The translations under genes were made by a program, and so were the position numbers. A stretch of DNA of 64,000 nucleotides from a virus: positions 17,602 through 81,601 of IMG/VR virus record IMGVR_UViG_3300042507_003741; one strand, given 5' to 3'. Shown one piece after another: positions 1 through 64,000 of the stretch. How positions within the stretch are numbered: position 1 is the stretch's first letter; the number at the start of each line of letters is the position of its first letter. The notes beneath the pieces are model-generated. The model saw only the letters and a program-made list of their open reading frames with translations. It was not told the DNA's origin and searched no databases.

Positions 1-176
1 GTCGCCTGCGCGACGTGCCGCCCGTTGCCCGACAGGTCGCGCCACTCGCTGACGGTGTTCCCGTTGAGCGTCAGGCTGCCGTCGTTGCTCGCGTCCAGCC
101 ACATGCCCAGATTCGGGATTGATCGCGGGTCAAATCCGCTGGCTCTGGGCCGCAGTAGCCGATTGTTCATTGACAT
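1..176 (-). CDS. N-terminus of putative tail-fibre/ConA(LamG)-like virion protein (partial)
   Basis: Hand translation MSMNNRLLRPRASGFDPRSIPNLGMWLDAS...VSEWRDLSGNGRH; WLDA/W-D-SGNG motif typical of LamG-like phage proteins; runs off window. Confidence 0.6.
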   Translation of the reverse strand, partial: MSMNNRLLRPRASGFDPRSIPNLGMWLDASNDGSLTLNGNTVSEWRDLSGNGRHVAQA

Positions 177-177
177 T

Positions 178-246
178 TCATCTGGCCCGGAGTGCGAGGA
201 CGAACACTGCGATCATCAGCAGCGTGAGGAGGATGTGCTCGATCAT
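178..246 (-). CDS. 22-aa hydrophobic peptide
   Basis: MIEHILLTLLMIAVFVLALRAR, AAGGA upstream, fills the gap between neighbouring genes. Confidence 0.45.
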   Translation of the reverse strand: MIEHILLTLLMIAVFVLALRAR

Positions 247-247
247 G

Positions 248-508
248 TCAGTTCCTTCCCTCGTCCACTCCATTCGCTGCGGCCACCTTCGGCTGCAAGG
301 CGTAGAGCAGCCGCGTCTGTTCGTGAACGGCTTCGGCTATGTCCCGCTGGGTCAGGGACATCTCCCGGAGAAACGCTTGGTGCGCCTCTACCATCGGCAG
401 CACGATGTCCACTCGCACAAACCACAGCACGCAGGTCGCCAGCATGAGCCCAAACCCATACCGCTCCCACATCCGCAACGCTGTCTCGTACATGTCCGCA
501 CTACTCAC
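248..508 (-). CDS. small membrane protein (holin-like candidate)
   Basis: One hydrophobic segment YGFGLMLATCVLWFV then amphipathic tail; coupled to neighbours. Confidence 0.55.
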   Translation of the reverse strand: MSSADMYETALRMWERYGFGLMLATCVLWFVRVDIVLPMVEAHQAFLREMSLTQRDIAEAVHEQTRLLYALQPKVAAANGVDEGRN

Positions 509-870
509 GGCTCACCTCTTGCTGCCCACTGCCACCCCGCCAGTTTCACGCGGTTCGCCGCTCTGGATAGCCACCACTCCAGGATGTGCTGCACGATGGC
601 CGAGATGGCGGCCGACAGGATCAGCGTCCAGAAGAAGCCGTAGGTCTGCTCGCCGCCACGCAGCGCCTCGTAGGTGGCTGTCACTCTCTTGGTGGTTGCG
701 TCCAGGATCTTCTCCTCCTCGACCGATCCCCTGCCGGCAGCGAGAAGCGGCTCAATGGGCCACTCCGTGACGGCGATCAGCACGAGGTCGTTCAGCCGCT
801 CCTTGCCGACGAGGCGGGCGCGAACCGGAAGGCGGCGGCGGACGTGGTCGCACAGTTCGTCGGCCCTCAT
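505..870 (-). CDS. hypothetical membrane protein
   Basis: Start MRADEL at ATGA overlap with upstream stop; C-terminal hydrophobic helix FFWTLILSAAISAIV. Confidence 0.6.
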   Translation of the reverse strand: MRADELCDHVRRRLPVRARLVGKERLNDLVLIAVTEWPIEPLLAAGRGSVEEEKILDATTKRVTATYEALRGGEQTYGFFWTLILSAAISAIVQHILEWWLSRAANRVKLAGWQWAARGEP

Positions 871-1103
871 GGCTGCCTCTCGCACGAGCCATTGACGCAT
901 CGCTGCGGCTTCGGCCGGTTCTTCGCACACGGACACGTCGCCGGGCATTCGCACCACACCCGCGTGATCCCGTCTCCCGTCGGCACCATGCCGGTGCCGT
1001 TGCACTTACCACAGCATTTCACTGCCGGCGGCGCGGGAGGAACAGGCGCGGAGGCTGGGGCGAACGCCAGCCACACCGCAACGGTGGCGGCCGTAATCTT
1101 CAC
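867..1103 (-). CDS. small exported Cys-rich protein
   Basis: Signal-peptide-like N-terminus, CCGKCNGTG and CECPATCPC motifs. Confidence 0.65.
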   Translation of the reverse strand: MKITAATVAVWLAFAPASAPVPPAPPAVKCCGKCNGTGMVPTGDGITRVWCECPATCPCAKNRPKPQRCVNGSCERQP

Positions 1104-2041
1104 CCCAGAATCTCCTTTGCGCCCCAGTCCTTGAGCATCCGCTTGGGGAACCCCAGCACGTTGGACACGGCATACGTCCCGCCCTGCGAGATCATTCGCT
1201 GGGCCGTCTGCTGGTCAATCCAGAAAGACCCCTCCGGCTGGTCGTGAACCTTCGGGCCGGTGTGAGCGTTCCAGCCCCACGAGTTCTGCACGCAGAAGCG
1301 GCAGTCATTGGGGCGGGTGTCGTCGGCTGCGTGCCACTGCATCGCGTGGTGCCATGTTCCGGACGGGCGGATCATGCCCTCCGAGTTCCGCCTCATCCCG
1401 GCGAACCCCACGTCTGAGCAGCACACCAGCCCGTACCCATTGGCGATTGCGTCCCGCGCCTGCTGCCACGTCGTCACCAGACTGATCGTCCCGATGTGGT
1501 GCTTCTTTGCCTCACTGGTCACCTCTGAGGGGACGCCCCGCGAACCCCACCGCATCCCCACCGCTGCGTTGTATTCCGTGAGGTCGAGCCCGAGCGCGTC
1601 ATACTTCTTGCGGAGCATCAGCCCGCCAGTCTTGTGCGCCCACTCCACGATGCGGGAGCAGGTGGCACCCTGACCGCCGTGACCACGAGCGCCGTACAGC
1701 GGCTCCGTCGCCGTCCGGTCCACCCAGTCCTCTGTCGAGTGCAGGTCAGGGTCGTTGCCCCGAGCAACATCTGCCCCGCCACGCACGGCATGGCTCACGC
1801 AATCGCCCGTCGTTTGCGTCTCGTCGTATGGCTTGCGGCCGGTCGCCGTCTCCCAGTGAACGACCGACTTGAAGGCAAGCGACAGTTTGCCAGCCCCGCT
1901 TTCGGCCAGCGTGCTGCCAAACAGCGGCATGGGCAGCGACCGCAGCAGCCGGGCGGTGGCGTCGGGGTCGCAGTACGAACCCACGAGCCCTTCGTTGTAC
2001 GCCCGAGCGATGTCCTCTGGCGAGGCGAAGAAGTCTTCCAT
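1100..2041 (-). CDS. papain-like cysteine peptidase (C1 family)
   Basis: Q-TTGDC (oxyanion Q and catalytic C), WHHAM (catalytic H), QNSWG (catalytic N). Confidence 0.85.
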   Translation of the reverse strand: MEDFFASPEDIARAYNEGLVGSYCDPDATARLLRSLPMPLFGSTLAESGAGKLSLAFKSVVHWETATGRKPYDETQTTGDCVSHAVRGGADVARGNDPDLHSTEDWVDRTATEPLYGARGHGGQGATCSRIVEWAHKTGGLMLRKKYDALGLDLTEYNAAVGMRWGSRGVPSEVTSEAKKHHIGTISLVTTWQQARDAIANGYGLVCCSDVGFAGMRRNSEGMIRPSGTWHHAMQWHAADDTRPNDCRFCVQNSWGWNAHTGPKVHDQPEGSFWIDQQTAQRMISQGGTYAVSNVLGFPKRMLKDWGAKEILG

Positions 2042-2048
2042 GCCTCAC

Positions 2049-2465
2049 CTATTTGATCGCTGCAAAAGCCCGAGCCGCTGACTGCCTGAGTTCCGGCGTG
2101 AGCGGCAAGTCCTTGTCGCCCACAGCCAGGAGCAGGTACTCGTCGAGCCGCTGGCCTAGCCCGGCATACCGGCCCACCATCCCCGTGTTCTCAAAAGCCA
2201 TCGACAGGGCGTGCTTGTACCGTGCCCGCAGGTCGAACAGCGTCTTGCAGACCGGCTGCTTGGCCGACCCGTCCCGCACCACGATGTCCGCCACTGCCGC
2301 ATGAAAGTCACGCAGGATCGCGGCATCGGCGGCACTGACGCCAGCCAGGACGCCAGCAGGCTGCGGCACAACCGGAGCCACGACTGGCCTGCGGGGCAGG
2401 ACGGTAACCGTCATGGCCCCAATGCCAATCAGCAGGCCCGCCCAGATTGCGACCGTCCGTGCCAT
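2049..2465 (-). CDS. hypothetical membrane-anchored protein
   Basis: N-terminal hydrophobic helix, operon position. Confidence 0.65.
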   Translation of the reverse strand: MARTVAIWAGLLIGIGAMTVTVLPRRPVVAPVVPQPAGVLAGVSAADAAILRDFHAAVADIVVRDGSAKQPVCKTLFDLRARYKHALSMAFENTGMVGRYAGLGQRLDEYLLLAVGDKDLPLTPELRQSAARAFAAIK

Positions 2466-2468
2466 GAA

Positions 2469-2711
2469 CTACCGCGCTTTCTTCGGGAGTTCCTTCTCTG
2501 CGACCAGGGCGGCGATCAGCGCTCGGGCCGCAGTCGCCACCGGAGTCTCGCCGGCCTCTTCCGCCTGGACGGCCAGAACGAAGAGGCGATTCACCCAGCC
2601 GGCCCGGTCTGACGGCGAGACTCCGGGCGACCGGGCGGCCGTCAGGTGCGGGAATGCCGCCGCGCCAGCGGCGACGGCAAATGCGACGGCGGCCACCAAG
2701 TACAGCGTCAT
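2469..2711 (-). CDS. hypothetical membrane protein
   Basis: Start MTLYLVAAVAFAVAAG overlaps upstream stop. Confidence 0.6.
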   Translation of the reverse strand: MTLYLVAAVAFAVAAGAAAFPHLTAARSPGVSPSDRAGWVNRLFVLAVQAEEAGETPVATAARALIAALVAEKELPKKAR

Positions 2712-2980
2712 CCGTCGATCTCCGCCTGCGACACCGCCGTCACGACAGCCACGATGTACCGGAACAACTCCTCGCCCTGCGGGCTCAACAGGCACGCCTC
2801 TACCCGCTCGCAGAGGTCATCGTCGATGGGAGTCGCCGTCTTGGTAGCGACAAACCGCATGAGTTTGAGCGCCCCTGCGGCCCGCTCTTTCGCCGTGTCG
2901 GCTGCGGAAATCTCGGACAGCATCGACAAGGCCGGAGCCCACTCGACGATCATCCTCACCTTGTCCGCGACAGTTGCCAT
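2708..2980 (-). CDS. hypothetical protein
   Basis: ORF with AGGAGAAGG upstream; follows promoter-like motif. Confidence 0.65.
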   Translation of the reverse strand: MATVADKVRMIVEWAPALSMLSEISAADTAKERAAGALKLMRFVATKTATPIDDDLCERVEACLLSPQGEELFRYIVAVVTAVSQAEIDG

Positions 2981-3356
2981 TTGCCTTCTCCTTCTGGCGG
3001 GCCGCCCATGCCACCAGAAGATTTATGTCCCGCTCGGGACGGCACAGGGACAACAGTTTTCGCCTGACTAAAGCGGGGTCCAGCCGCAAATCCAGGCACG
3101 TCTGGTCGAACGTGAACAGGCCGCCCGTGCCCTCAAACGCCCAACGATAGGCCGCCACCTGCCGGCGGAGCGTCTCCCACTCCTTCCGGCTTGACGGCAG
3201 CATCTGGGCGTACCCCAGCCGGCGGTGCCGGCGACACAACTCCCGAACGTGATAATGCGTGCGAACGAGAACCTCTGCGCAGAACCTACCCCAACCGGCC
3301 TCGCAATCCTCAACGATGTTCTCGTCGTCGTAGTCCTTTACGGCGACGGCGATCAT
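2817..3356 (-). CDS. hypothetical protein
   Basis: ORF coupled to upstream stop; 3' end overlaps next gene. Confidence 0.55.
   Translation of the reverse strand: MIAVAVKDYDDENIVEDCEAGWGRFCAEVLVRTHYHVRELCRRHRRLGYAQMLPSSRKEWETLRRQVAAYRWAFEGTGGLFTFDQTCLDLRLDPALVRRKLLSLCRPERDINLLVAWAARQKEKANGNCRGQGEDDRRVGSGLVDAVRDFRSRHGERAGRRGAQTHAVCRYQDGDSHRR
3020..3030 (-). promoter_or_regulatory. putative late-promoter motif GGACATAAATC
   Basis: Same motif recurs just upstream of gene blocks at 22806, 41114 and 58938. Confidence 0.5.
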
Positions 3357-3970
3357 TAGTTTGTCGGTGCCTCACAATAGCCGGTACGAAATGAACCTTC
3401 GTTGAGTTCCGGCCACAACTCCAACGAATGAATCGCTGCCATGAAGTTCCACGCCGCATGGCCCAGATGGTCTTCGCTCCTGTCGCCGTCCAGGAACTTG
3501 AATACGTGGCGAATGGCATGATTCAGTATGTCGGCTGCACCCATCCCGGCTTCCCAGTTATAGGGACTGTACTTGGCGGCACCTTCTGCACAGGCGATTG
3601 CCACTGCCTCAATGCCCTTCGGTGGAATCAGGTCATAACGAAACAACCGCACTTCGTGCATTTCTTTCTCGACACGGCTGTTCTCCTGAATGGCGTGCAG
3701 GACTGCAACCGCAGCGTTTGCCAGATGGTCGGCATTCCTATCTCCCGCCAGAAAGAGGTATGTATCTCGGAGGCACTCGTTGAGACATTCCGGCACGCTC
3801 AGTCGCCCCCCATACTTCGCGGCTCCTTCCGCACACGCTGCCGCCACCGCCGCCAGACCGATGGGCGTGATGAGGTCGTACCTCGTCGCCTCCGCATCGC
3901 TCGACCGAACGGCACCGCTGGCGTACCTGACTGACCTGTCCTCAGTTACTTTTGTCACTGGATTTATCAC
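3356..3970 (-). CDS. dATP/dGTP diphosphohydrolase-like (DUF5664) protein with internal duplication
   Basis: SGAVR, RYDLI..GAAKY twice, NWEAG, HAIRH, EDHLGHAAWN. Confidence 0.75.
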   Translation of the reverse strand: MINPVTKVTEDRSVRYASGAVRSSDAEATRYDLITPIGLAAVAAACAEGAAKYGGRLSVPECLNECLRDTYLFLAGDRNADHLANAAVAVLHAIQENSRVEKEMHEVRLFRYDLIPPKGIEAVAIACAEGAAKYSPYNWEAGMGAADILNHAIRHVFKFLDGDRSEDHLGHAAWNFMAAIHSLELWPELNEGSFRTGYCEAPTN

Positions 3971-4482
3971 TTGACTAACTCCTTGAATCGGGCCTCAAAC
4001 AACTCCTTTGCTTGCGTCCAGGAATACGGATTCACTGGCCCGCACGCAGGCTCTACGTCGATCCCCCAGTCGTGCGAGCAGGAGATCAAATCGCGCTTCT
4101 CCGCCATCAACGCCCGCAGGTCTGCCTGCTTTACGTCGGGCGGCATCGGCCACGACAGCCGAAACACGCGGGCTATCGTCTGCTGCACCCGCTCCTCCAG
4201 TTCCCGGTAGCCGGGCAGTAGGTTCTTCAGCGGCGTGGCTACGTCTCCCAAGTACGCCTCGCTGGCATCATGCAGAAGCCCCCACAGCGCGTTCTCTGGC
4301 AGCGTCAAGCGGCTCACCATGACGCTGTGCTGGGCCACGCTGTACGGGCACTTGCTGTGGCCCGTGAATCGGCTGATGAGAGACAGGGCGTGGGAGATGT
4401 CGGGCAGGCGGACGTCCTCCTCGCTGAAGTTCGCGAGGTCGATCAGTTTCCCGGTATACGTCTGCATGGTCGTGGCGTTCAT
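3967..4482 (-). CDS. HD-domain phosphohydrolase (YfdR/YfbR-like 5'-deoxynucleotidase)
   Basis: DISHALS..RFTGH, YSVAQHS, LLHDASEAYLGD; AGGAG RBS. Confidence 0.85.
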   Translation of the reverse strand: MNATTMQTYTGKLIDLANFSEEDVRLPDISHALSLISRFTGHSKCPYSVAQHSVMVSRLTLPENALWGLLHDASEAYLGDVATPLKNLLPGYRELEERVQQTIARVFRLSWPMPPDVKQADLRALMAEKRDLISCSHDWGIDVEPACGPVNPYSWTQAKELFEARFKELVK

Positions 4483-4484
4483 GG

Positions 4485-4958
4485 TCAGCACTCCTTGCAC
4501 ACAAATGGGTCTATCGGACGCAACGCCGACTGCGGGACGAAATACGCTTCCCCGTAGCCACCGTAGTTGGCCTTGAACTTTGGCTGCTTCGCCTCCGCCG
4601 CAGGCATCCAGCCGTGAATGGTGAACTCGTGCGGGCCTCCCGTGACCAGTACGAACACGTCACTGTCCCTGTCTCCGGATCGGACGATAAGGTCATAGGA
4701 ATGCTTGGATCGCGTGCGGACCTGGATGCGTTCACCGACATCACCACCAGACTTGAAGGTGTTGACACTGCCGTTCCAGTAGCGATTGGTCGCCTTCGCG
4801 AACGCACACTCACCGAGCGCGCCGAGAATGTGAACGTGCCACTCGTTTTCGTTTGTGGGACGGGCGTTTTGCAGACCCTTTCGCAGAGCCTCCACGTTTC
4901 GGCTTACTCCCACGAGTGCTGCCCGGCTCACCTCGAACCACTCCAGCGTTACCCGCAT
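4485..4958 (-). CDS. hypothetical phage protein, possible PD-(D/E)XK-like fold
   Basis: GALGE..AK, GDVG..IQVR motifs. Confidence 0.6.
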   Translation of the reverse strand: MRVTLEWFEVSRAALVGVSRNVEALRKGLQNARPTNENEWHVHILGALGECAFAKATNRYWNGSVNTFKSGGDVGERIQVRTRSKHSYDLIVRSGDRDSDVFVLVTGGPHEFTIHGWMPAAEAKQPKFKANYGGYGEAYFVPQSALRPIDPFVCKEC

Positions 4959-5067
4959 CGTTCTTTCCTTCCCTGAGAGCGACCCAGCCGTCCTTGTCCG
5001 GGATCGGGCTGTGGATTTCCTCCTCCTCGCCGTCGTCTCCATCCCAGTCGATCACTCTGGCGTTCAT
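4810..5067 (-). CDS. hypothetical protein
   Basis: Start overlaps upstream stop; acidic N-terminus; 3' overlap with next gene. Confidence 0.4.
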   Translation of the reverse strand: MNARVIDWDGDDGEEEEIHSPIPDKDGWVALREGKNDAGNAGVVRGEPGSTRGSKPKRGGSAKGSAKRPSHKRKRVARSHSRRAR

Positions 5068-5768
5068 CACATGGCCCCCTGCACCTGCTGCACGAATCGC
5101 TTGATCTGCTCCAGCGGGAACGTCACAAGCCACTCCTTATCGTTCTGCCGGTGCAGCACCACCGGGCAGAGTTCGCCGCACTGCTCACGGGACTTCTCCA
5201 TGACGGCGTGGAGGTTCAGCCCGCGCTCCACCCGCTTTACCTCCAGCCACAGGTGCGGAGTGCCAGGAGACAGGAGATCGCTGGCCGACTCCGTGCCGCT
5301 GTGCTGCTGCGAGCGGCGGGCTCCGGCCCATGGAACCAGCCGGTTCCATTCGGACGCCGCCTCCAACTCGCCACGCTTTCCCTTCTGCCTGCTGTTGATT
5401 GCCATATCCTTCAACTCCTTTGGGATCCCGTTCCGCCGACGAAATACGAACACACGCACCGGATACCGCTCCGGGCCGTAGCCCAGATGTTTCTTGAGGC
5501 GGAGCGAAGCCAGGAACGCCGGGTCGTAGTGGGCGTCGTCAACTTCTCTCTTTGCGGTGAGCAGCATCCCTTTGGTGAGGTTGTTCTTGCCCCCGAAGTG
5601 CAACCCCTCGTGGCACCACATGCAGAGACGCAGGAGGTTGCGTCGGTCGTGGGAGCGGCCCGCCCCTTGTTGCAGGTGGTGGATGTGCAGCGACTCCCGC
5701 CCCCAGCACACAGCGCAGAAGCCGTACTCCGCCGCAAAGGCCGCCAGTTCTTTACGGGCATCACTCAT
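5067..5768 (-). CDS. HNH domain fused to Holliday-junction-resolvase-like PD-(D/E)XK domain
   Basis: CAVC..HHL..NLLRLCMWCH; then NSRQKGKRGELE..DLL..LEVKR. Confidence 0.75.
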   Translation of the reverse strand: MSDARKELAAFAAEYGFCAVCWGRESLHIHHLQQGAGRSHDRRNLLRLCMWCHEGLHFGGKNNLTKGMLLTAKREVDDAHYDPAFLASLRLKKHLGYGPERYPVRVFVFRRRNGIPKELKDMAINSRQKGKRGELEAASEWNRLVPWAGARRSQQHSGTESASDLLSPGTPHLWLEVKRVERGLNLHAVMEKSREQCGELCPVVLHRQNDKEWLVTFPLEQIKRFVQQVQGAM

Positions 5769-6048: not shown

Positions 6049-6373
6049 TCAAAGCGCCTCTTCAAGCGCTGAAACAAATCAATCTGCTCACTGTTTGAAG
6101 GCTCGCTGCGGGTGGACGGCGACTATCCCCAGCCCGAAGGCTAGGGTTAGCCGCCACCTGCCCACTGTCAGTTAGGACGTAGGGGTGTCCTCCTTGCCGC
6201 AGGGGCGGAGGCATGCGACCTGCTTATCGGACATCCTGCTGTCCGCGTGACTTGGCCCTGTCGCTTGCGGCTGGCCTACCCACTTTCGTCACGATCCCTT
6301 CTGGTCGTGGGTCATGCGTCTGCGTGCCATAGGTTCACCCAACCCACGCAGCCGTTCGGATTGTCGAATCGCT
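6049..6373 (-). ncRNA. candidate structured non-coding RNA (~320 nt)
   Basis: One of the few long intergenic regions; 17-bp cUUCGg hairpin with G-U pairs (6118-6155) plus several nested stems. Confidence 0.5.
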
Positions 6374-6772
6374 CTACTTCATTCGCGGGATGCTCCGCAG
6401 GACTGCCATGTCCGACCACTTGTCCGCAGCGTGCCAGGACATCCAGCGGCCGCCATTGGTTGCGGCCACAGGAACGCAAAGGACGACGCCCGTGCGGATG
6501 TTGCAGAGCACAAAAGCATCGACGTGTCGCGGATCGTATCGCTGCGACTTGGCCGACCCTCTGCCAATGCGAATGCGGGACTTGTTGCGGCCGCGAGACG
6601 ACGATGCCTTGACCTGGATCCGCCAGCAGCGGCGTGCATCAAAGGCGAGCAGGTCATACCCGTCGTCCACAATCGGGACGGCGACGTAGAAGCCCGCCCG
6701 GAGCAGCCGCTCCACAGCCATAGCCACGCCGATTTGTGATATGAAACGCTCATCTGGCGATCCTTCGCTCAT
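6374..6772 (-). CDS. PD-(D/E)XK endonuclease, group I intron-associated type
   Basis: IG..(A)V..LL..GF.V..P..D..YDLL..IQVK pattern; GGAG RBS. Confidence 0.7.
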   Translation of the reverse strand: MSEGSPDERFISQIGVAMAVERLLRAGFYVAVPIVDDGYDLLAFDARRCWRIQVKASSSRGRNKSRIRIGRGSAKSQRYDPRHVDAFVLCNIRTGVVLCVPVAATNGGRWMSWHAADKWSDMAVLRSIPRMK

Positions 6773-6780
6773 GCGCACTC

Positions 6781-8304
6781 CTACCGGGCCGCAGTGGTTT
6801 CCTTTCGCCGCCCCAGTTCCCTCCGCACGGCCGACGTGAATGGCGTCTCCTTCTTCTGGGAGCCAAGCACCCACGAGAGGTATCCCTCCGGGATCGAGTC
6901 CAGAGGAATGCCCTTGTATTTGCCGTACATCATCCGCCAGCCACGCTTCTTCTTGGCCTCCGGCTCGGAGAAGAGGTCGCGGGTGGTGTGATCGAAGTTG
7001 ACGCCTATCAGAAGGCTCTTGCGGCGCTCCCGGCTTTCCAGTGACCGGGCCTCCAGTTCTGCCAACTCAATGGCATCCGCCTCACGAATGGCACTGACGG
7101 CATCCGTGCCCTCCATCGACAGAGAGGCAGACAGTCGGCTGCGGCGGGCGGGCCGCTTCCTGCTCTTTGCGTCCAGGACTTGCATCGCATTGAGCAGTTG
7201 ATGGTTGCGACTGCTGTCGGTGATGTCGTAGATGTTGAAATGAGGCTTGTCGCTCGCCGCGATTGCCGCCAGCCGCTCGTCCCGGCTCATCTCCGAGTGG
7301 ATCGTGCCGGGCAGCGGCCGGGTGCCGCGACCCAGACGCTGCTCGTATCGCGACAGGCTGCGAGTCGGCGCTGCCATGTAGATGTTTCGCAGCGCCGGGA
7401 AGTCCCAGCCGTACCCCAAGATGCCGACGTTCACGATGATCTTGGTTTCACCAGACAGGAAGGCGTCCATGTTCGCCTGCCGCTCGACAATGTTCTGGCT
7501 GCTGTGAACCAGACTGACAGTGTGCTGGTAGCGCTCAAACATGTCGCGCAACTGCACGGCCTGCCGCTTGTTGCATGCGTAGACCACCGACGGCTGCTGC
7601 TTGAAGGTTGACAGGACAAGGCCCGTCACCTCCTGCGCGAAATGCTCTGCCGTCATCACGGCTGCCAACTGGGACGTGTTCCACTCGCCGGCCTCGTCTT
7701 CCACGAGGGACAGGTCGAAACTCTTGGCCTCGCTGAGAAAACACTTGGGGCCGACCAGATACCCGTCGCTGATGCCATCCAGCAGCGAATACACCACCTG
7801 CGGGCGAGGCCAGTATCGCAATGCCTTGCCCTTGCCCTTGTAGGGAGTGGCCGAGAATCCGACGATGGTCGCCCCTCGATTTTCAAACCACTGGAGCATC
7901 TCCTCCATGCGTGGCGTCATGCCGACGTGGCACTCGTCCACCAGCACCAAAGACACACGCTCGTACGCCTTCGCCTTGAACCGGCTGCTGGAGAGCAGGC
8001 TGTCCCGAGAGCCGACAATCACTCTGCGGCGCAGCCCCTCGATGCTCTCCGCAAAGTTCCCGCCCTGCTCGATGTCGCACCGTTCTCCCAGACGCAATTC
8101 CAAGCGGTCCCGGCCCTGACGCATGAGGTCAAGAAGCGGCACCACCTTCAGCGGGTATCGTGCGATGCGGCACAACTCGGCCATCACCTCTGTCTTGCCG
8201 GAGCCGACCGGCTGGCAGACGACGATCCGCTTTTGGCCTCGCTTTGCGGCCCGGCACACAGCCTCGACGGCGGATCGCTGATAGTCACGAAGGGAGATCG
8301 TCAT
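6781..8304 (-). CDS. superfamily 2 DEAD/DEAH-box helicase
   Basis: LRDYQ, PVGSGKT, DECH, SATP, QRLGRGTR; C-terminal GKYKG..IPEGYLSW domain. Confidence 0.9.
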   Translation of the reverse strand: MTISLRDYQRSAVEAVCRAAKRGQKRIVVCQPVGSGKTEVMAELCRIARYPLKVVPLLDLMRQGRDRLELRLGERCDIEQGGNFAESIEGLRRRVIVGSRDSLLSSSRFKAKAYERVSLVLVDECHVGMTPRMEEMLQWFENRGATIVGFSATPYKGKGKALRYWPRPQVVYSLLDGISDGYLVGPKCFLSEAKSFDLSLVEDEAGEWNTSQLAAVMTAEHFAQEVTGLVLSTFKQQPSVVYACNKRQAVQLRDMFERYQHTVSLVHSSQNIVERQANMDAFLSGETKIIVNVGILGYGWDFPALRNIYMAAPTRSLSRYEQRLGRGTRPLPGTIHSEMSRDERLAAIAASDKPHFNIYDITDSSRNHQLLNAMQVLDAKSRKRPARRSRLSASLSMEGTDAVSAIREADAIELAELEARSLESRERRKSLLIGVNFDHTTRDLFSEPEAKKKRGWRMMYGKYKGIPLDSIPEGYLSWVLGSQKKETPFTSAVRRELGRRKETTAAR

Positions 8305-8623
8305 GCTTCCCTCCTCGCTTCTTGGCCTTCTTGGCACGCTTGGCTGCCCGTTTCCTCTTGCCCGACTGAGGCTCGGCGGCCGGAGCCGACCAGCGGTTGC
8401 TGCAAATGGTCGCACTGCACTCCGGCTGCGGGTCTGCGGCAGGAGCCGGAAACATCTGCGACAGGCGTGCGTCCAGCCGCTGCGCCAGTTCGATCTCCAC
8501 CAGCAGGGCCGGCAGGATCGCCTTGCAAAACCGCACGGCCGTATCGGCGTCCAGCGTCCCCGCCTGTGCGTGAGCCGAGACGCCTTGAGCCAGCGAGATG
8601 TAGCGTTCAGTGTCGGGTGTCAT
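8285..8623 (-). CDS. hypothetical protein
   Basis: ORF track; basic C-terminus. Confidence 0.55.
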   Translation of the reverse strand: MTPDTERYISLAQGVSAHAQAGTLDADTAVRFCKAILPALLVEIELAQRLDARLSQMFPAPAADPQPECSATICSNRWSAPAAEPQSGKRKRAAKRAKKAKKRGGKHDDLPS

Positions 8624-8630
8624 GAGTGAA

Positions 8631-8659: not shown

Positions 8660-8693
8660 GCCGTTGGGATGTGGCCCTGCCCTGCCAAGTTGA

Positions 8694-53794: not shown

Positions 53795-53797
53795 TCG

Positions 53798-55447: not shown

Positions 55448-55454
55448 TCCAACC

Positions 55455-56981: not shown

Positions 56982-57231
56982 TCTTCTTCGCCTTCTTCTT
57001 GGGAAGGTCCGCCAGCTCACCGTCGCCAGGAAGATCGTCTTCGGCTACCTCGGGAGTGTTCGGCTTGCCGTGCATCTCCTCGTCCAGGTCAGCCAGGTCG
57101 TTCTTCTCAGCCCGCTTCTGGAGCTTGTCCAGGATCTTCTTCTCGTCACCGTCCTTGGCGACCAGGAGTTGCTTCACCATGCGCTCCAGAGCCGAGCGGT
57201 TGAGGTCACGGATGTCGAAGTCCATCTTCAT
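56974..57231 (-). CDS. small acidic/basic protein
   Basis: Homologue of 20616-20921. Confidence 0.7.
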   Translation of the reverse strand: MKMDFDIRDLNRSALERMVKQLLVAKDGDEKKILDKLQKRAEKNDLADLDEEMHGKPNTPEVAEDDLPGDGELADLPKKKAKKNG

Positions 57232-57617
57232 TACATAAGCCCCGAAAGAGCGCCGGCCCGCTGAAGCTGGGCCATGGCATTGGCGTAAGCGTTCTGCTGC
57301 TGAAGCGCGCCAAGCGCCTGAGCAAACTGTTCCTGGCCCTGCTCGGCCGTCAGACCAGCCAGCGCGGCGGTGTTGGCCTGCTGGGCCTGCTGGCCGTAGG
57401 CGTCCGCAATGCCATCAGCCATAGCCGTGGCCGCCTTGGCCCCGGCATGCTGCCGCTGGCCAGCGCCGCGGGACATGCCCGGTCGGTCAAGCGGCTTGAG
57501 GTTGTAGCGCACATCACCAGCCGCGTGAGCCTGGGCCATTCCGGCGTTGAACGGGCTGGGGTTGGCACGGTAGTCATAGGACGGCAGCGGCGGCTGCGCC
57601 AGGTTGACGTTGTTCAT
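57231..57617 (-). CDS. Ala/Gln-rich putative virion protein
   Basis: Homologue of 20918-21451. Confidence 0.65.
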   Translation of the reverse strand: MNNVNLAQPPLPSYDYRANPSPFNAGMAQAHAAGDVRYNLKPLDRPGMSRGAGQRQHAGAKAATAMADGIADAYGQQAQQANTAALAGLTAEQGQEQFAQALGALQQQNAYANAMAQLQRAGALSGLM

Positions 57618-57937
57618 CGAAATAGCCCCCCAAGGAGACTGCCAGCCAGAGAAGACTGGTACTGGTTTTGGAGTTGCTGAAGGCCCGCCATCTGTTGCAA
57701 GCCCTGGAGGGCAAGGCCGCGCTGGGCCTGCTGCTGGGCTACGCCGTACTGCATGTTGGCGTTGTCGGCCTCACGGGAGTAATCAGCCGCACGCACGCTG
57801 GCCGCCGCGTTGTAGGTGTCCTTGGCCGTCTGGTCGTACCCCGCGGGGGACTGCTTCTTCATGCCGGCCACCGCACCCGCACGCATCTCGTCGGAGATGG
57901 GAGGGCGGTACGCGAGCCTGGTGTCGTACGAAATCAC
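57614..57937 (-). CDS. Gln-rich putative virion protein
   Basis: GTG start overlapping upstream stop; syntenic. Confidence 0.55.
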   Translation of the reverse strand: MISYDTRLAYRPPISDEMRAGAVAGMKKQSPAGYDQTAKDTYNAAASVRAADYSREADNANMQYGVAQQQAQRGLALQGLQQMAGLQQLQNQYQSSLAGSLLGGLFR

Positions 57938-58923
57938 TAGCCCATATCTCCAATGAAGCCCCGCCCGCTGGCGATGACTGAGGCGGGCGTGCCGGGCCGC
58001 CAAGCCTTCCTCGGCGCCTGCGGCCCAGTGATCCCAAAGGCGTTATGCAGATTCGTCATGGCGCCTTGCATCATCTGCCCGTACTGGTTCAGTTGCCCCA
58101 ACGCACCGCTGTACCCGGAGTTCAACTGGTTCAGAACGCCACCAAACTGGGCACGGTTCGCTGGGTTGTTCTGCGTGGCATAGAACTGGTTCATGCCCAT
58201 CTGCGATGCACCAAGCCCCTGGCCGGCGAGGGAGTGCAGGCCACCCAGAGTCTGGGAGAGCATCTGCTGCGGGGCGTACCGCGAGCTGTAATAGGCGCGG
58301 TCAAGCTGGTCCCGTCCGGAGTCGGCCTGCGACGAGATGCCACCGTCGCCCGACAGGATGTCGCGCCGCAGCGTGTTCAGGAACGACATTGATCCGCCCG
58401 GGGAAGACGAACCGCCAAACGAGCCCGATGAAATGGGCCCCGACACGCCCGTCGCAGAGAACCCCGATCCAGGGGCGTTCATGCCAGACAGCACTCCAGC
58501 CCCAGCCAGGGCAGCCAGGTTGTTGTTGCGGCCAGTGGCGTACTGCGAACGGGCCATCTGATTGGCGGCCTGCATGTCAGCCGCAGACTTTTGGTACGCA
58601 GCCTGGTTGGCCGCCCACGCCTGCATGGCGTTATTGCTGGCCCCACCAAACGCACTGAGGGCCCCAGCCCCGATGTTGGAGGCAGCGTTCTGGCGGGCCG
58701 CTTCTGCCATGGCATTGGCGCCGTACCAGCCGGTTCGCTCGTTGGCCATAGCACCGGCGACGTTGCCCAGTCCCTGTGCCATGCCGCCAAACGCCTGCCC
58801 TGCCGCGCCGGCGAACTGCCCGGGCTGCGAGTAGAGCGCGCCCAGCAGGCTCGCCTGGGCTTGAGCCCTCTGGCCTGCGGCCCCGTCGTTAAAGGAGGCG
58901 TACGGCTGTGTGGTGTTAAACAT
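57937..58923 (-). CDS. Gly/Ala/Gln-rich DNA pilot/ejection-like protein
   Basis: Composition and position after promoter motif. Confidence 0.55.
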   Translation of the reverse strand: MFNTTQPYASFNDGAAGQRAQAQASLLGALYSQPGQFAGAAGQAFGGMAQGLGNVAGAMANERTGWYGANAMAEAARQNAASNIGAGALSAFGGASNNAMQAWAANQAAYQKSAADMQAANQMARSQYATGRNNNLAALAGAGVLSGMNAPGSGFSATGVSGPISSGSFGGSSSPGGSMSFLNTLRRDILSGDGGISSQADSGRDQLDRAYYSSRYAPQQMLSQTLGGLHSLAGQGLGASQMGMNQFYATQNNPANRAQFGGVLNQLNSGYSGALGQLNQYGQMMQGAMTNLHNAFGITGPQAPRKAWRPGTPASVIASGRGFIGDMG

Positions 58924-58937
58924 GCATATCCCTCACT

Positions 58938-58948
58938 GACTAATGTCC
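58938..58948 (-). promoter_or_regulatory. putative late-promoter motif GGACATTAGTC
   Basis: Variant of segment 1 motif at the syntenic position. Confidence 0.5.
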
Positions 58949-58951
58949 GTT

Positions 58952-59704
58952 TCAGGGCCGGATGACTACCTTCAGGTTGACCCCTAGTTTCCGCTCGTCT
59001 ACGCGGCAGTATTCCTCGTTGAAAGTGGCCTTGCGCAGAATCTTTTTGTTCTGCGGCCAGCCGGTGATCTGGAGCGACCGTATTTGGCGCTCCAGCGCAC
59101 GGACACGCCCGTCCAGGTTTATGAGCCAGTTGACAATGGGCCGCAGGTCGGCGTTGATTTCCTGGGTGATGTTGTTGATATTCAGCAAGAAACCAGGAAT
59201 GCCATCCAAACCCCTGGCCCCCTGCGGGCCGGCTGGGCCATCAGCCCCGTCTGTTCCGGGAGCAGGGTCACCATTGATGGTCTGGACGGTGATGTTGTTG
59301 GCGACATGGTTTTCGGTGGTCAGGTTCTCGGTGTACGTATCACCCTGAACCGTGACCGCAGGAGCCGTGTAGTATTGGTTGAGACTCTGCTGGAGCACCG
59401 TCCGGAGATCGAAGTACGGCGACCCGTAGAACGTGCTGTTCCAATCGCCGGCCTGGTATCCGCCACCGCTCGGGGCTTCAACGAACCCCTGCGGTCGGAA
59501 TAGGCCCGGGTAGTCGTTGGGGTTCCAGCCGCCGGCTGGCACCAGACCACCGGGAGGGGAGGCCAGGCCGTTACTGAAGGCCACTGGCCCCCGATGCTCC
59601 ATCGGCTGGGTGCAGTTGAACAGGGATTGCGTCAGTGCCTGCTGGGCAGGACTGACCTGCCCCTGCATCGCCCTGTTAAACGCTGGAGCCGCGCGTGTCA
59701 GCAT
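58952..59704 (-). CDS. tail protein with short collagen-like repeat and coiled coil
   Basis: GTDGADGPAGPQGARGLDGIPG; LDGRVRALERQIR. Confidence 0.6.
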   Translation of the reverse strand: MLTRAAPAFNRAMQGQVSPAQQALTQSLFNCTQPMEHRGPVAFSNGLASPPGGLVPAGGWNPNDYPGLFRPQGFVEAPSGGGYQAGDWNSTFYGSPYFDLRTVLQQSLNQYYTAPAVTVQGDTYTENLTTENHVANNITVQTINGDPAPGTDGADGPAGPQGARGLDGIPGFLLNINNITQEINADLRPIVNWLINLDGRVRALERQIRSLQITGWPQNKKILRKATFNEEYCRVDERKLGVNLKVVIRP

Positions 59705-62328
59705 CAGCTTGCCCCCGCAACTGTCATGGAGTGGAGCTGCACGGTGCCCGTGGACTGCGTTCCAGACAGGGCAATCGCCACATGCCGATCACCACCGGCA
59801 CTCATCTCGTCCACTCGGCCGGACATGCTGACGCGGGCGTACCCCGTCGCCTGGCCAAGAGCGCTGCGGTCGGAGGCCATGTTAAGCGTGGCGACTGACG
59901 AGCCGGTAACGACAGTCACGCCATCCCCGCGGTCGGCGGCAACGGCATTGGTGCGAGCGACGGTGGAGTTGTTGTAGTGCAGGCCAATCGCCAGCGACTC
60001 AGGCGTCGGCGTGTACAGTATGCCCAGCGAACGGTTGCCCTTCTCGTCCACCAACGGACGCGGAGAGCTGCGATAGAGCCACGGCACGGCGGTAGTGCTA
60101 CCGGAAGTAGTGGCATCGACACGCCCGCCAGGCTGAAGGATTTTGCCTGCCTCGCCGCCGTACAGCACCGTCTGCCGCTGGCCAGCAACGGACGCAGCGG
60201 CATGCGGGAGCGCCTGCGGGAACGTCTCCTCCCACCACGCCTGCGTGGACAGCGAGTAGCACAGCGCCCGCTTGGGGTAGATCCCATCCGTGGACTGGCA
60301 GTAAAAGAACCGGATGACCCGCTCCTGCGGGCTGGCCTTCACATAGCAGTATTTGCGCTTGGTGAAGTCGATGATGCCGTCACGCCAGTAGTTGTCGATG
60401 GGGGCCGAGATGGCCTGCTCCTGTGACCCGTCGAAGGCGTAGACCCCATAGTCATCCGCAATAAACGCCACGCCCCCAAACACATCCCAGCACCGGGAGT
60501 TCATCGCCCCGCGGTAAGACACCAGCGTGATCGACGCATCGATGATCGGCTGACTGACATACTGCAAGCGGTATACATGCCGGTTCTGGGCAATCAGCAT
60601 GGATCCGCCGAAGGGAATCAACGCCACAATCGCATCGGAGTCGATGGCGTTTTCCTGCACCACCAGCTCGTTGGATTCGGGCACCGACTCGGGCTCGTCC
60701 ACCTCGGAGTAGTAGAGGCTGTTGGGCTTGCTGCCGGTGGTGTCCACGGCATACCAGGCCCGGTCCTGGAACATGCAGCCAACGGCCATGGTCTGCGGCG
60801 GCGGGTCGAACCGACGAGCGTTGACCTGGCCGCTGGGAAGGACAATCGGCATCAGGCCGTAGACGCTGCTGACGTTCGACGCAACCGTATTGCGGTCGGT
60901 GTCCAGCAGGTCCAGGTCCGTGAGGGTGTCCACGTAGGATGTGGTCGTAAACTCGCCTCCCACCTTGTCGATTCGGGCCACCCGGTACAGCACCACCGAC
61001 TGATCGGCGGTGGTCCGCCACAACTCAATCGCATGCACCCGGCTCTCCATGCCTTGGTTGTTCAGCGACCAGGTGAGCGACTGGAGGCCAGTGGTGGCAT
61101 CGATCTCCTTCAGTTCGGAGATGGAACTTGGGATCGGGCCGCCCTGAGACTCGGGCGTGTCATCCAGGTAGCGGATGCAGCACTGATAGATCCCTTTGAT
61201 AGTGGGGGCGACCACTGCAAGGGCCTTGGCGCTGGTGTCAGCAATGGCTGCCGTGGGCGGGAGTGAGTATCGACCGCCCGCCAACACCGTCACGCCAGTG
61301 ATCTGCCCGGCGGAGTTGATGGCGCAGGTCGCTGCCGCACCGCCACCCAGGTAGTCCTGCGGATGAGGGTAGAACGTGATGACGGGCGGAGACATATACC
61401 CCGTGCCAGAGTTTGCCACCGACACAGAGTGAACGGAATACTCTAGGATGGGCCTGGCCGACGCCTGCGTGGTCGCGCCTCCTCCGGTAAGCGAAACCGT
61501 CACTCCGGTGGCCGTGGCACCTGTCCCTCCCGCCAGAACATCGGCACCCACCACCACCTTGTCATCCGTGTCCACGCCAACAACAACATTGGCGCCCGTC
61601 AGGCCCTGGGTGTTGTGAAACGTGACCGTTGGTGCCCCGGTGTAGCCAGATCCGACAGAGAGGAACTCCAGGCCCACAAGGCTCCCTTGGACGTTGCAGG
61701 TAAACGCAGCGCTACTGCCCTGCCCGCCGACAAAAGACACCTGCGGGGCGGCCGTGTATCCCGTACCGCGGTCGGTTAGCCGCACGCCGCTGACCCGGCC
61801 GTTGGCGACCGTCACCACTGCCGCCGCTGACGTTGTCGCCCCGCCACCAGTAAACGCGGCCCCCGGGACGCTCGCGTAGCCATTGCCGCGGTCGATGACC
61901 TGCACTTCGGCAACGTAATACTTCTGCCCCGAGGTCGATCCGACAGGGGCGGCAAAGCTCGCCGGCTTAGAGATGCCCAGCGGTTCCAGGTATGGCGTCT
62001 CGCCGTCCCAGCGGAACCCACGGCCGTGGCCGTCCACGCCGTACATGTCATGCCGGCCTTTGAAGAACGTCACGGGCCGGGTGCCGGCGAACGACAGGAC
62101 GCTAGCGGTGGCTGCTGCGGCGCCGGCTGAAAACGAAACGGTCGGGGCCGAGGTGTATCCCGTGCCGGCGTTGGTGATGAGCACGCTCTGGACCATGGTG
62201 CCGGCCATCTGGGCGACCGCCGCGGCGCCAGTCCCGCCGCCACCGGAGATGGTCACGGAAGGCGCAGAGCCATAGCCGCTGCCGCCAGAGCCCACCGTCA
62301 CCTTGACCACCCCAGAACCAAGCTGCAT
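59704..62328 (-). CDS. tail hub/nozzle-like protein (second copy)
   Basis: [21 protein letters not shown]; GxGY repeats. Confidence 0.7.
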
Positions 62329-62597
62329 TAGACAGCCCCCTTGGCAACATAGATCCCGCCTGCGGCGTTCTGGTAGACCAAGTGGCCTGTGGTGCTGTGC
62401 TGAAAGTGAAACATCTGCACAACGGCCGTGGTGGATCCGGTGTGCGTGGCGAACGACACGTTGGTCATGCCGCTGCGGACAACGACAGACCCCGGCACCA
62501 GGGCTTGCAGATTGACCTGCGTGGCCGCCGCAGTCGCAGGCACAGAGTAGGGGCTGGCGTTAGTGACCAGACCCTTCCATGAGTCTATGGTGATCAT
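62328..62597 (-). CDS. small tail protein
   Basis: [11 protein letters not shown]; homologue of 28458-28826. Confidence 0.65.
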
Positions 62598-63733
62598 CCC
62601 TGGTCTGGCATGAGCGGGCTACGCCAGCCCCCGTAATGGTAAATCTGTCGGCTGCGACCGCTGAGTGGAGCGAGCTGGTCCTGTTCCATCGCCAACCTGA
62701 GATCCCTCTGGTACATCTGGAACATCTTGTCCACCGCCTGTCCGCGGATGCGTGCCAGCCAGTAGTCGCAGCAGCTATCCAGGGCGGCCTGCATGTGAGG
62801 TGCGACATCCATCGGGTCAGTGATCAAATACTTGGTCGAACCGGCCACCGTCCCAGAGTCATCGGTGGTCAGTGCGGTCGAAGACCCAACCGTAGCGATG
62901 CGGCTCTCGGACACCCACGGCGTCAGCGACTCAATCGGCCCCGGGATGTTGGTAACATCGCCAACACGCAGGATCGAACCCACCATCGCAGACGAGAAGG
63001 CAGTTCCCGTTCCGGTGACGGTGGCGGCGCTGCGGCTGATCGTCCCCTGACGCAGGGCTGCCTCATGGCCGGAATAGCGAATCGGCCTGGCAGTACGCCG
63101 GTAGGTGAAGTCGATGGTTTCCTTGGCGGTCGGCCATCCCACCAACTTGATCGCCCAGCTCGCACCGTGGGGGTCTTTGATCAGGGTCCAGTGGTAGGGC
63201 TCACCCGACGAGTTGCTCACCCGTTCGATCTTCATCGCCTCATCGGGGGTCACATACAGCCCAGACCACCAGTTGAACTCGTCGCTGGGCTCGTCCATGT
63301 TTTTGAAGTCGGACGGCAACGGGTAGATGGTGCGGAACAGGGTGAATGGTGACCCGGCCGTCACATCGATCCCAGAGAAGGCCGACTCCAGCGTCACCGC
63401 CGTGGCACTGGAATAGGAGGCGAGTGGATACGAACGGTCGCCTGTCCGGAGAGTCCAGTGTTTGGCGTTCGACGCCGTCACGCCGGCCGTGGCAAAAGAC
63501 CCTCCAGTGAGCGTCACGGCTCCGGAGGACACTCCGATGGTCCCGGTGGTATATGCCGGATTGGTGACGATGCGCCCGTGAACGGAGTAGTAGCCCCAGT
63601 CACGGATCGTTGTCAGCTCGTTGTACGCCCGATGAATGGCAGACCGGATGTCACGCTGCTCGGCATCCTGCGGCCCGCCGTAGGAGGAGACAATCAGGGA
63701 TTCAACCAGGTCGTAGTATGTGATGTAGCCCAC
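62594..63733 (-). CDS. head-tail adaptor-like protein (second copy)
   Basis: GGPQDAEQR..RDW, FTYRR, Y.RDLR.A.E.D..APLSG. Confidence 0.65.
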   Translation of the reverse strand: MGYITYYDLVESLIVSSYGGPQDAEQRDIRSAIHRAYNELTTIRDWGYYSVHGRIVTNPAYTTGTIGVSSGAVTLTGGSFATAGVTASNAKHWTLRTGDRSYPLASYSSATAVTLESAFSGIDVTAGSPFTLFRTIYPLPSDFKNMDEPSDEFNWWSGLYVTPDEAMKIERVSNSSGEPYHWTLIKDPHGASWAIKLVGWPTAKETIDFTYRRTARPIRYSGHEAALRQGTISRSAATVTGTGTAFSSAMVGSILRVGDVTNIPGPIESLTPWVSESRIATVGSSTALTTDDSGTVAGSTKYLITDPMDVAPHMQAALDSCCDYWLARIRGQAVDKMFQMYQRDLRLAMEQDQLAPLSGRSRQIYHYGGWRSPLMPDQG

Positions 63734-64000
63734 TTACTCCCCCTCTGCCGGCAGCATCGCGACGGCGTCGGCCCACGGCATCACTTCGACGGCAGGCAAA
63801 AGCACGGCCATATCCGCGTGTCGCCACATCTCGTACAGCAGACCGCCGGGCGTGACTTCGGTGAGTAGGTCGGCCGAAAGCATGAGACGGCCATCCGTCA
63901 AGACGCGAGGAACTGGCACGCACTTGCTGGTGCCATGCTCTGCGTGGAGTTCCGCGAGCCTTGCGGCGAGCTGCGGTGTGAACACCAGCGCGTATTGTCT
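63734..64000 (-). CDS. hypothetical protein (partial)
   Basis: Frame open to window edge; LTDGRLMLSADLLTE. Confidence 0.55.
   Translation of the reverse strand, partial: RQYALVFTPQLAARLAELHAEHGTSKCVPVPRVLTDGRLMLSADLLTEVTPGGLLYEMWRHADMAVLLPAVEVMPWADAVAMLPAEGE

Follow-up and report, generated by a model that had tools for sequence, protein, structure and literature searches.

Reciprocal avoidance of restriction-type words by two lake phages within one, most likely chimeric, metagenomic contig

The window analysed here is a 64,000-nucleotide (nt) stretch of viral DNA, positions 17602–81601 of the 81,601-bp IMG/VR record IMGVR_UViG_3300042507_003741 (hereafter G000); coordinates are those of the window unless marked G000. 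The record holds two distinct, distantly related phage genomes, A and B, each of which lacks short restriction-type words that the other carries. GC content stays at 61–66% along the entire window, nearly every gene from G000 15.8 kb to the end is called on the minus strand, and a tRNA search of the window found none. We present the record as a clean new example of restriction-site avoidance within a contig that is most likely chimeric.

Results

Two core gene sets in one record

Two word sets serve as markers throughout, the A-forbidden words (A-words: AGCT, CCGNGG, CCCGGG, GGGCCC and TGGCCA) and the B-forbidden words (B-words: CWCGA/TCGWG, GACGAC/GTCGTC, CACGTC/GACGTG and TCGCGA). The genes and features of the window are as follows (aa, amino acids).

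1–41734 (G000 17602–59335), unstranded: phage A, unique part, without A-words
6781–14765, minus: A replication block (Pfam matches), with counterparts in B
6781–8415, minus: A helicase
8694–9383, minus: A ERF recombinase
9380–10366, minus: A PD-(D/E)XK exonuclease
11172–14765, minus: A 1197-aa protein
25501–37870, minus: A virion block (PHROG matches), 53–59% aa identity to complete B-type counterparts
25501–28461, minus: A 986-aa structural protein
30646–32688, minus: A portal
32991–34715, minus: A putative 574-aa terminase-like protein, named from position and conservation, with no family match
36752–37870, minus: A major head protein
40983–43203, unstranded: small-gene hub, without the forbidden words of both lineages; its part from 41609 belongs to a stretch (41609–43212) at 350–1100x depth
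42972–43203, minus: second copy of the TM76 repeat (232 bp), a 76-aa membrane-protein-like gene matching G000 1–232 with 5 mismatches
43194–43946, minus: p250, a variable 250-aa gene with homologues in 28 loci, covered by exact unitigs at B depth
43919–44146, minus: p75, 75 aa, 88% aa identical in A-like and 89–95% in B-type genomes; its start codon overlaps the p92 stop codon
44143–44421, minus: p92, the first gene to show B-type word usage; four B-type contigs carry it at 97% aa identity
44146–64000, unstranded: phage B fragment, with 42 AGCT and 183 A-words and with no CWCGA, GWCGWC, SACGTS, CAGCTG or GAGCTC
45628–53794, minus: B replication block, colinear with the A block at 26–32% aa identity
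45628–47130, minus: B helicase
47536–48201, minus: B ERF
48162–49022, minus: B exonuclease
50156–53794, minus: B 1212-aa protein
59704–63985, minus: B virion genes, including 874-aa (59704–62328) and 379-aa (62594–63733) genes
63734–63985, minus: B 83-aa gene, cut by the contig end; 66% aa identity to a 103-aa gene of A (G000 15853–16164)

The two gene sets follow the same order at low amino-acid identity: 29% for the helicase, 32% for the ERF recombinase, 28% for the PD-(D/E)XK exonuclease, 29% for a lone plus-strand gene, 26% for the protein of about 1200 aa and 37% for a small protein. Among the virion genes, the large virion protein is 35% and the 379/294-aa protein 33% identical.

Independent relatives support the presence of two genomes. 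Those compared were IMG/VR records, including G001 and G002 (loci L040–L045), G003 (IMGVR_UViG_3300036770_001978; L046–L049) and G004 (IMGVR_UViG_3300042516_003682; L050–L052). G001 (57,870 bp, CheckV 99%) and G002 (59,220 bp, 100%) are complete B-type genomes with their own portal, terminase-like protein and head protein, 53–59% aa identical to those of A, and most of their genes are 92–100% aa identical to the B genes of the record. The B fragment is thus about one third of a B-type genome of ~58–59 kb, cut by the contig end. At the other end of the record, G000 1–232 recurs at G000 60573–60804 (window 42972–43203) with 5 mismatches, after which the copies diverge; A therefore closes as a circle of ~60.6 kb (60,572 bp), and part A is taken below as G000 1–60572, the bases over which expectations for A were computed. 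G003 (67,752 bp) is A-like, with most genes 80–98% aa identical to A. It carries SSB followed by p75 and p250, and its p250-to-p250 period of ~61.9 kb describes the same circle as A. Family genomes measure 58–62 kb, and the record amounts to one complete genome of ~60.6 kb (A) and one third of a second, with the core gene sets duplicated. A prophage with host flank can be ruled out, as B is phage DNA with complete relatives.

Two further features of the gene order deserve mention. The lone plus-strand open reading frame (ORF) within the minus-strand operon lies between the exonuclease and the ~1200-aa gene in both genomes (10359–11183 in A, 49265–50179 in B; E 6e-21 at the 29% identity given above) and is kept in G001–G003. 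The 103-aa gene of A and its truncated B counterpart of at least 83 aa are 71% identical in nucleotide sequence, and their 66% aa identity is far above the 26–37% of neighbouring orthologues. The gene holds a different place in the gene order in A and in B; in B-type genomes the interval from the 379-aa gene to the portal block contains it along with a relative of A's 538-aa gene.

Synonymous recoding removes AGCT from A

AGCT is absent from 1–44466 and occurs 42 times in 44467–63972. Including the 17.6 kb ahead of the window, the AGCT-free run spans G000 1–62067, or 62,067 bases. Word expectations were derived from a maximal-order Markov model, from within-gene shuffles of synonymous codons (200 runs) and from dinucleotide shuffles of the window (100 runs). 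The dinucleotide shuffles gave 220 ± 13 sites, with at least 42 in all 100. For A, zero observed sites stand against 169 expected under the Markov model and 164.1 ± 8.5 (minimum 138) under the synonymous shuffle. B is itself mildly depleted, with 42 sites versus 71.9 ± 5.5 by synonymous shuffle (0.58x). The same division holds for whole genomes: the two complete B-type genomes carry 117 and 121 sites spread over their full length, and A-type and A-like genomes are AGCT-free along their whole length, except for the first 5.1 kb of G003.

Codon choice shows how the word is avoided. None of the 167 Lys/Gln/Glu-Leu dipeptides in A is written NAG-CTN (63 are NAG-TTR, 102 NAA-CTN and 2 NAA-TTR), where overall usage is 73–85% NAG and 85% CTN. 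AGC, 26% of Ser codons overall, is used for 0 of 130 serines ahead of a codon starting with T, and GCT for 0 of 177 alanines following an NNA codon. In the same three contexts B uses these codons in 27 of 66, 12 of 67 and 3 of 64 cases. The purge of AGCT from A is achieved through synonymous choices in all three reading phases.

These counts bear out most of what a first-pass annotation of the window had noticed by eye, namely the lack of AGCT in 1–44466, the encoding of Glu-Leu, Gln-Leu and Lys-Leu so as to avoid it, and the appearance of CCTCGG, CCGCGG and CCCGGG near or after the switch (first at 44152, 44212 and 46903). Its estimate of roughly 35–40 AGCT sites from 44467 onward was right about where sites resume and slightly low, the true count being 42. 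Comparable AGCT densities on either side, which would have spoken against a switch, were not found (0 versus 42).

The purges of A and B are reciprocal

A catalogue of degenerate 4- to 6-letter words, counted on both strands against an order-2 Markov expectation, extends the contrast well beyond AGCT. The A-word set is absent from G000 1–61746 and occurs 183 times beyond, first at window 44146; within A, 0 are observed versus 396 expected. Words missing from A and present in B are AGCT, CCGNGG, CCSSGG, TGGCCA, GGGCCC and ATGCAT. Conversely, CWCGA/TCGWG, GWCGWC, SACGTS and TCAYGA are missing from B and common in A; YTCGAR is also missing from B, with just 2 copies in A. CWCGA/TCGWG numbers 318 in A, 0 in B, 1 in G001, 0 in G002, 423 in G003 and 228 in G004. 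It is an asymmetric 5-letter word, and we know of no enzyme with such a specificity. B-words occur in A at 8.3 per kb (~8 per kb in its unique part within the window) and thin out beyond G000 58583. The purges of A and B are therefore reciprocal and not simply present in one and absent in the other.

Other words are lost from both genomes: CGATCG, CTGCAG, GTCGAC, CTCGAG, CACGTG, ACGCGT, GTGCAC, AGGCCT, GGTACC, TTCGAA and RAATTY. CAGCTG, GAGCTC and WAGCTW number 0 in B, and 0 in A too because each contains AGCT. A lacks 33 of the 64 palindromic hexamers and B lacks 32; 26 of these are missing from both genomes, and many of the missing hexamers have small expectations. Added together, observed/expected counts come to 397/899 in A and 251/338 in B. 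CTCGTC/GACGAG is retained in B, although CWCGA, GWCGWC and SACGTS are absent from it.

A and B differ in depth and meet in a crowded hub

Twenty-four lake or freshwater runs contain window 42000–46000. Logan contigs from four of them (X1, X3, X7 and X8; dated 2016, 2020, 2023 and 2024) were placed on 38000–50000, with depth taken as the mean per contig. The depths of A (38000–41207) and B (43213–50000) were as follows.

Run X1: A about 33 (one bin 67.9); B 64–91
Run X3: A 1.3–5.6; B mostly 13–24
Run X7: A 0–0.65; B mostly 8–18
Run X8: A 0–33.5; B 96–313

A and B are thus 2- to more than 20-fold apart in all four runs placed. Exact X1 unitigs show the same difference, with a depth of 32.9 for 38734–41422 in A and 68.8 for 43893–46023 in B; two X1 unitigs lie at A depth (32.9 and 27.3), and unitigs at that depth extend to 41734. 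Between the two genomes, 41609–43212 stands at 350–1100x, with dozens of alternative joints and loose ends. The first 127 bp of the TM76 repeat (42972–43098) are exact between both copies, the record start coincides exactly with the repeat, and loose ends to the right of 43203 (runs X3 and X7) agree with the continuation of A itself (G000 233–262) in 28 of 30 bases. We conclude that the assembler crossed from A to B somewhere in 41735–43174, the 127-bp exact repeat being the obvious place. Because the depths differ 2- to more than 20-fold and the genomes meet in a high-depth hub with an exact repeat, the adjacency of A and B is most likely a misassembly.

The hub produces other joints as well. 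Within 41399–42714, Logan joints recur at 41399–41431, 41561–41589, 41702–41707, 42009–42055, 42475–42508 and 42609–42714; they skip 42–1034 bases, and one goes back 1110. This looks like cassette shuffling among co-occurring phages. G003 begins with a 5.2-kb piece (1–5284; 13 AGCT, unpurged 6-mers, proteins unrelated to those of A or B), which is joined at the p250 hub to a complete A-like circle devoid of AGCT; a further copy of p250 lies at 67140. G003 is probably a second overlong record, reflecting another assembly path through the same hub. A 97,713-bp contig in a Crocinitomicaceae bin (JBIPMW010000293.1; loci L054/L055), from a metagenome-assembled genome (MAG), carries two 11-kb stretches 65.6 kb apart that are 99.98% identical, that is, a same-family phage of ~65.6 kb assembled more than once around and binned in a bacterial MAG; there is no AGCT in the 11 kb.

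The word switch marks a module edge inside B

The position of the word switch does not coincide with this joint. The first A-word is a TGGCCA at 44146, overlapping the p75 start codon, and the first AGCT follows at 44467. AGCT alone would place the change point anywhere in ~43.0–44.47 kb, as the probability of finding no AGCT in 1294–1495 bp at the B rate is 0.065–0.042. B-depth unitigs start at 43174, ~1 kb to the left of position 44146. Zero-difference unitigs span 44146 in all four runs (X1 43893–46023, X3 43776–46024, X7 43174–45232, X8 43467–45019), and four independent B-type contigs cross it at 95% nt identity, reaching down to G000 61343–61388. The island to its left is nonetheless free of A-words: G000 60700–61746 has 0 versus 7.9 expected, an outcome of P ~1e-4 at B's 9.2 A-words per kb, where the largest gap elsewhere inside B is 686 bp. 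G001 has the same A-word gap (1611 bp), after which A-words resume. The unitigs, the B-type contigs and the G001 gap together indicate that B-type genomes naturally hold an island without A's forbidden words, so that 44146 is a natural gene and module boundary ~1 kb inside B and not a genome joint.

The module itself is shared. In G003, p75 adjoins SSB, with similarity setting in precisely at its start codon. p250 varies widely, with 39–65% aa identity among relatives. Its homologues in the 10 closest loci examined (L005–L018) contain no A-word; the rest of those loci carries 0–11.3 A-words per kb, and 9 of the 10 backgrounds are unpurged. In more distant loci some p250 homologues contain A-words. 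The island's own genes (TM76, p250 and p75) offer just 2 informative Lys/Gln/Glu-Leu dipeptides and 3 of Ser followed by a T-starting codon for the codon test.

A hub without either word set

To the left of the module, the small-gene hub lacks the words of both lineages. On the A circle, a 3.9-kb stretch that starts at 58584, crosses the repeat and ends at 1923 contains 1 B-word versus 29.1 simulated (order-2; minimum 15 in 300 runs) and 0 A-words versus 30 simulated, where two control stretches of A contain 29 and 45 B-words. Read along the record, G000 58584–61746 has 2 B-words versus 19.8 simulated and 0 A-words versus 24.8 simulated. A comparable stretch free of both sets lies just after p250 in G003 (6186–8899). 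The doubly purged hub coincides with the hyper-abundant region, and many phages in these lakes evidently share its small genes. The hub is consistent with a gene pool that lineages hold in common; its lack of words may also owe something to amino-acid composition or to a first-expressed region being under stronger selection.

The first-pass annotation had taken the lack of AGCT in cassette cargo as weak support for a shared gene pool. That suggestion is strengthened for the hub by the junction and fails for the plus-strand cassette array outside the window (G000 2.6–15.4 kb), which is not doubly purged and in which B-words are as frequent as in A generally. In A, a metallophosphoesterase gene (PF00149/PF12850) and a 73-aa gene occupy the slot between SSB and TM76 (region of G000 901–1659 and 1932–2453, outside the window; locus L004). 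The same slot in G003 holds p75–p250 instead, an alternative cargo; both versions are without either word set.

Relatives, hosts and methyltransferases

No cultured relative or host hint emerged from the phage-record searches. Pieces of A and B, 8 kb each, had no megablast match among 50,697 phage records, tblastn of A's portal against phage records was equally without a match, and the B helicase found just relatives at 33% identity or less, in phages of many hosts. An alignment scan with the terminase-like protein across 185,579 species genomes returned 7 loci. All 7 fall in MAG bins (Crocinitomicaceae, Chitinophagales, Proteobacteria, 'bacterium' or Cloacimonadota) and were rejected as host evidence, since the taxa are inconsistent and the contigs phage-like.

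Loss of AGCT recurs across the family, in G003 apart from its first 5.1 kb, in all 43.9 kb of G004, in L014 and in the 97.7-kb MAG contig (L054/L055). L053 has the terminase-like protein closest to that of A (72%), yet it carries 63 AGCT in 10.6 kb. As AGCT-free and AGCT-rich genomes occur among close relatives, the trait is labile, as expected for strain-level restriction differences. G004 shows a third avoidance profile, with 0 AGCT in 43.9 kb and 125 occurrences of 6-mers missing from both A and B (CGATCG, GTCGAC, CTGCAG etc.); it encodes a beta-class adenine methyltransferase (PF01555, 178 bits; NCBIfam PRK11524-like).

An ORF of ~230 aa in both complete B-type genomes matches PF00145 at a borderline 19–21 bits and conserves DLYCGAG, PPCQ, ENV and RRHRLF, which we take to be the classical 5-methylcytosine methyltransferase motifs. 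Of its 6082 homologues, many bear the name DNA (cytosine-5)-methyltransferase or contain PF00145. Its single-sequence fold reached a predicted local distance difference test (pLDDT) score of only 29.6, and a confident model needed an alignment (pLDDT 86.4); this model matches the catalytic domains of DNMT3/DNMT2 with a Foldseek E of about 1e-9. A sequence search of PDB and NCBIfam gave no match for the ORF. A PF00145 match was not found in A (G000) or in the A-like G003, and it occurred in 1 of 14 further relatives and in 1 of 5 AGCT-rich, 100%-complete records (G009, G010, G015, G016 and G018). With 1 of the 14 further records carrying PF00145, a general rule that relatives either methylate or purge is unsupported. 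The record's B fragment excludes the methyltransferase region.

Discussion

We regard it as likely that the record represents two lake phages of one family, each purged of different restriction-type words, most likely joined by the assembler in a shared hub, and that the switch at 44146 is the edge of a B module. In such a scheme, every AGCT, CCGNGG, CCSSGG, TGGCCA and GGGCCC would have been removed from A (window 1 to ~41.7 kb) by synonymous codons under selection from host nucleases. B (~43.2 kb to the end) keeps A's forbidden words and has shed CWCGA, GWCGWC, SACGTS, CAGCTG and GAGCTC, and both phages lack a further common set of 6-bp palindromes. The assembler would then have passed from A to B inside a hub of near-identical small genes common to many co-occurring phages. 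Position 44146 would be the left edge of B's own genes and the start of a p75–p250 module that circulates between lineages without the forbidden words of either. Direct observation covers the word counts, the recoding of codons, the presence of two genomes, their unequal depths and the natural existence of the 44146 joint.

That restriction enzymes drove the purges is the standard reading of such data; AGCT is the word usually linked to AluI-type enzymes. A and B appear to have met overlapping but different restriction repertoires, and most likely use different host strains or species of one lake community. The first-pass annotation had proposed that the switch marks two genomes with different restriction histories, the first having evolved under an AGCT-cutting system and the second not. 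Two genomes with different purge profiles are indeed present, as the colinearity at 26–37% aa identity, the independent complete relatives and the depth all indicate. The profiles are reciprocal, but B is itself depleted in AGCT, their adjacency is most likely an assembly artefact, and the switch lies ~1 kb inside B and not at the genome joint.

Several points weigh against this interpretation. The different restriction histories are read from word statistics, and the cytosine-5 methyltransferase of B-type relatives could explain part of B's tolerance without any difference in host. The evidence on the joint comes from assembled contigs. The depths, being per-contig means, also count relatives of at least 90% likeness; selecting the runs for the presence of window 42000–46000 favours B, and X1 may be the sample of origin. 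CheckV calls the 81.6-kb record 100% complete and raises no flag. The length of 60,572 bp for the A circle takes the hub sequence left of the repeat to belong to A. Finally, of the sliding k-mer and change-point check that the first-pass annotation had proposed, the short-word counts do switch at 44146, but a generic tetranucleotide divergence scan misses the seam, which scores 0.0153 and is no outlier (median 0.0123, 95th percentile 0.0193). Only a few short words take part in the switch. The maximum of that scan lies within the A virion genes at ~22400–24150 (G000 40.0–41.75 kb; divergence 0.023–0.026 versus a median of 0.012), and the shift at ~22.9 kb is unrelated to the AGCT switch.

Among other explanations, the most serious is that A and B face the same AGCT- and CC..GG-cutting enzymes and that B-type phages protect themselves with a cytosine-5 methyltransferase, so that strategy differs and not history. 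The methyltransferase-like ORF in both complete B-type genomes, with its confident model and with no match in A or G003, speaks for this, as do the CpG contained in every CCGNGG/CCSSGG word and the example of G004, which keeps CGATCG, GTCGAC and CTGCAG and carries an adenine methyltransferase. Blanket methylation of AGCT is nevertheless hard to square with a B that has 0 CAGCTG, GAGCTC and WAGCTW and 0.58x AGCT, and B also purges AGGCCT and many CpG words. Its absolute purge of CWCGA, absent in A, shows different exposure regardless. PF00145 is found in just 1 of 14 further relatives and 1 of 5 AGCT-rich complete records, the methyltransferase region is outside the record's B fragment, and methylation of AGCT/CC..GG by the enzyme is presumed. 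We therefore consider a difference of strategy alone unlikely.

A real 81.6-kb molecule, with a B fragment joined to a full A genome by natural recombination, as a cointegrate or as tandem prophages, seems very improbable. It would account for the tightly packed operon p92–p75–p250–TM76 across the boundary, with its overlapping stop and start codons, and exact unitigs confirm that the p250/TM76 edge exists in nature; A also encodes a small serine recombinase (PF00239), and one distant relative is classed as a provirus. Such a molecule would however exceed the 58–62 kb of family genomes and carry two sets of helicase, ERF, exonuclease and virion genes. Its halves would have to differ 2- to more than 20-fold in depth, with B present in X7 at a time when A is at 0.65x or less. 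Neither host flank nor tRNA was found, the record begins exactly at the repeat, and a second overlong record, G003, takes a comparable path through this hub and carries 5.2 kb of unrelated sequence. Polar avoidance within one genome, with first-entering DNA purged and the later part shielded by early anti-restriction proteins, can be virtually dismissed. The switch is sharp and at a gene boundary, and a position-dependent weight of restriction sites is documented (PMC12455610), but the duplicated gene sets, the depth and the complete relatives argue for separate genomes, and B-type genomes bear AGCT throughout (117 and 121 sites) where A-type and A-like genomes are free of it throughout. Two phages with different word profiles, most likely joined in assembly, remain our preferred reading.

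Avoidance of restriction sites in phage and archaeal virus genomes has been surveyed (Rusinov et al. 2018, PMC6286503). For the HF1-group haloviruses, PMC7230728 describes HRTV-7 as alone in lacking AGCT. As there, 4- to 6-bp palindromes are wholly absent here with the proteins unchanged, in a lineage-specific manner and for many 6-mers at once. The present case differs in that the purges of the two related lineages are absolute and reciprocal and include the degenerate or asymmetric words CCGNGG (A) and CWCGA (B), and in that a shared hub is without both word sets. In chimeric metagenome contigs across repeats, as in this record, the contig is longer than one genome, strains are crossed in a high-copy, near-identical region, and depth is unequal. 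The difference is that word usage changes here ~1 kb past the assembly joint, at a natural module boundary.

Tailed phages exchange modules at gene boundaries, as in the Hendrix-type model of mosaicism. Similarly, p75 is kept at 88–95% between lineages whose core genes share 26–59%, and the shared stretch starts at the start codon; what differs is that the exchanged module is recognisable from its restriction-word profile alone. In T5, restriction sites are avoided in the first-step-transfer region, which enters first. Avoidance in an early region is also described for Murciavirus (PMC12455610). Both share with this record a sharp positional contrast in restriction sites along phage DNA, but the contrast here is between two genomes and not between early- and late-entering parts.

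Four features go beyond routine restriction-site avoidance: the purges are reciprocal and complete, the words CCGNGG and CWCGA are asymmetric, the assembly joint and the word switch lie apart, and the hub is both doubly purged and hyper-abundant. Profiles of restriction words tell apart genomes that ordinary composition measures do not, and so offer a cheap check for chimeras among contigs passed by completeness tools. Reciprocal purges in related lake phages also yield predictions on the restriction enzymes of unseen hosts, a handle for host assignment. More tentatively, and with the balance of probability still somewhat against it, the hub and the p75–p250 module (~3–4 kb between the replication and virion blocks) might form a communal pool swapped by many lineages and cleared of the union of their restriction words, which would act as a 'passport' into genomes facing different nucleases. 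If so, word profiles might reveal which way, and how recently, modules have moved among uncultured phages. The doubly purged, hyper-abundant hub suggests that the restriction pressures on all carriers jointly shape the modules they share, which, if confirmed, would be a defence-driven constraint on phage mosaicism.

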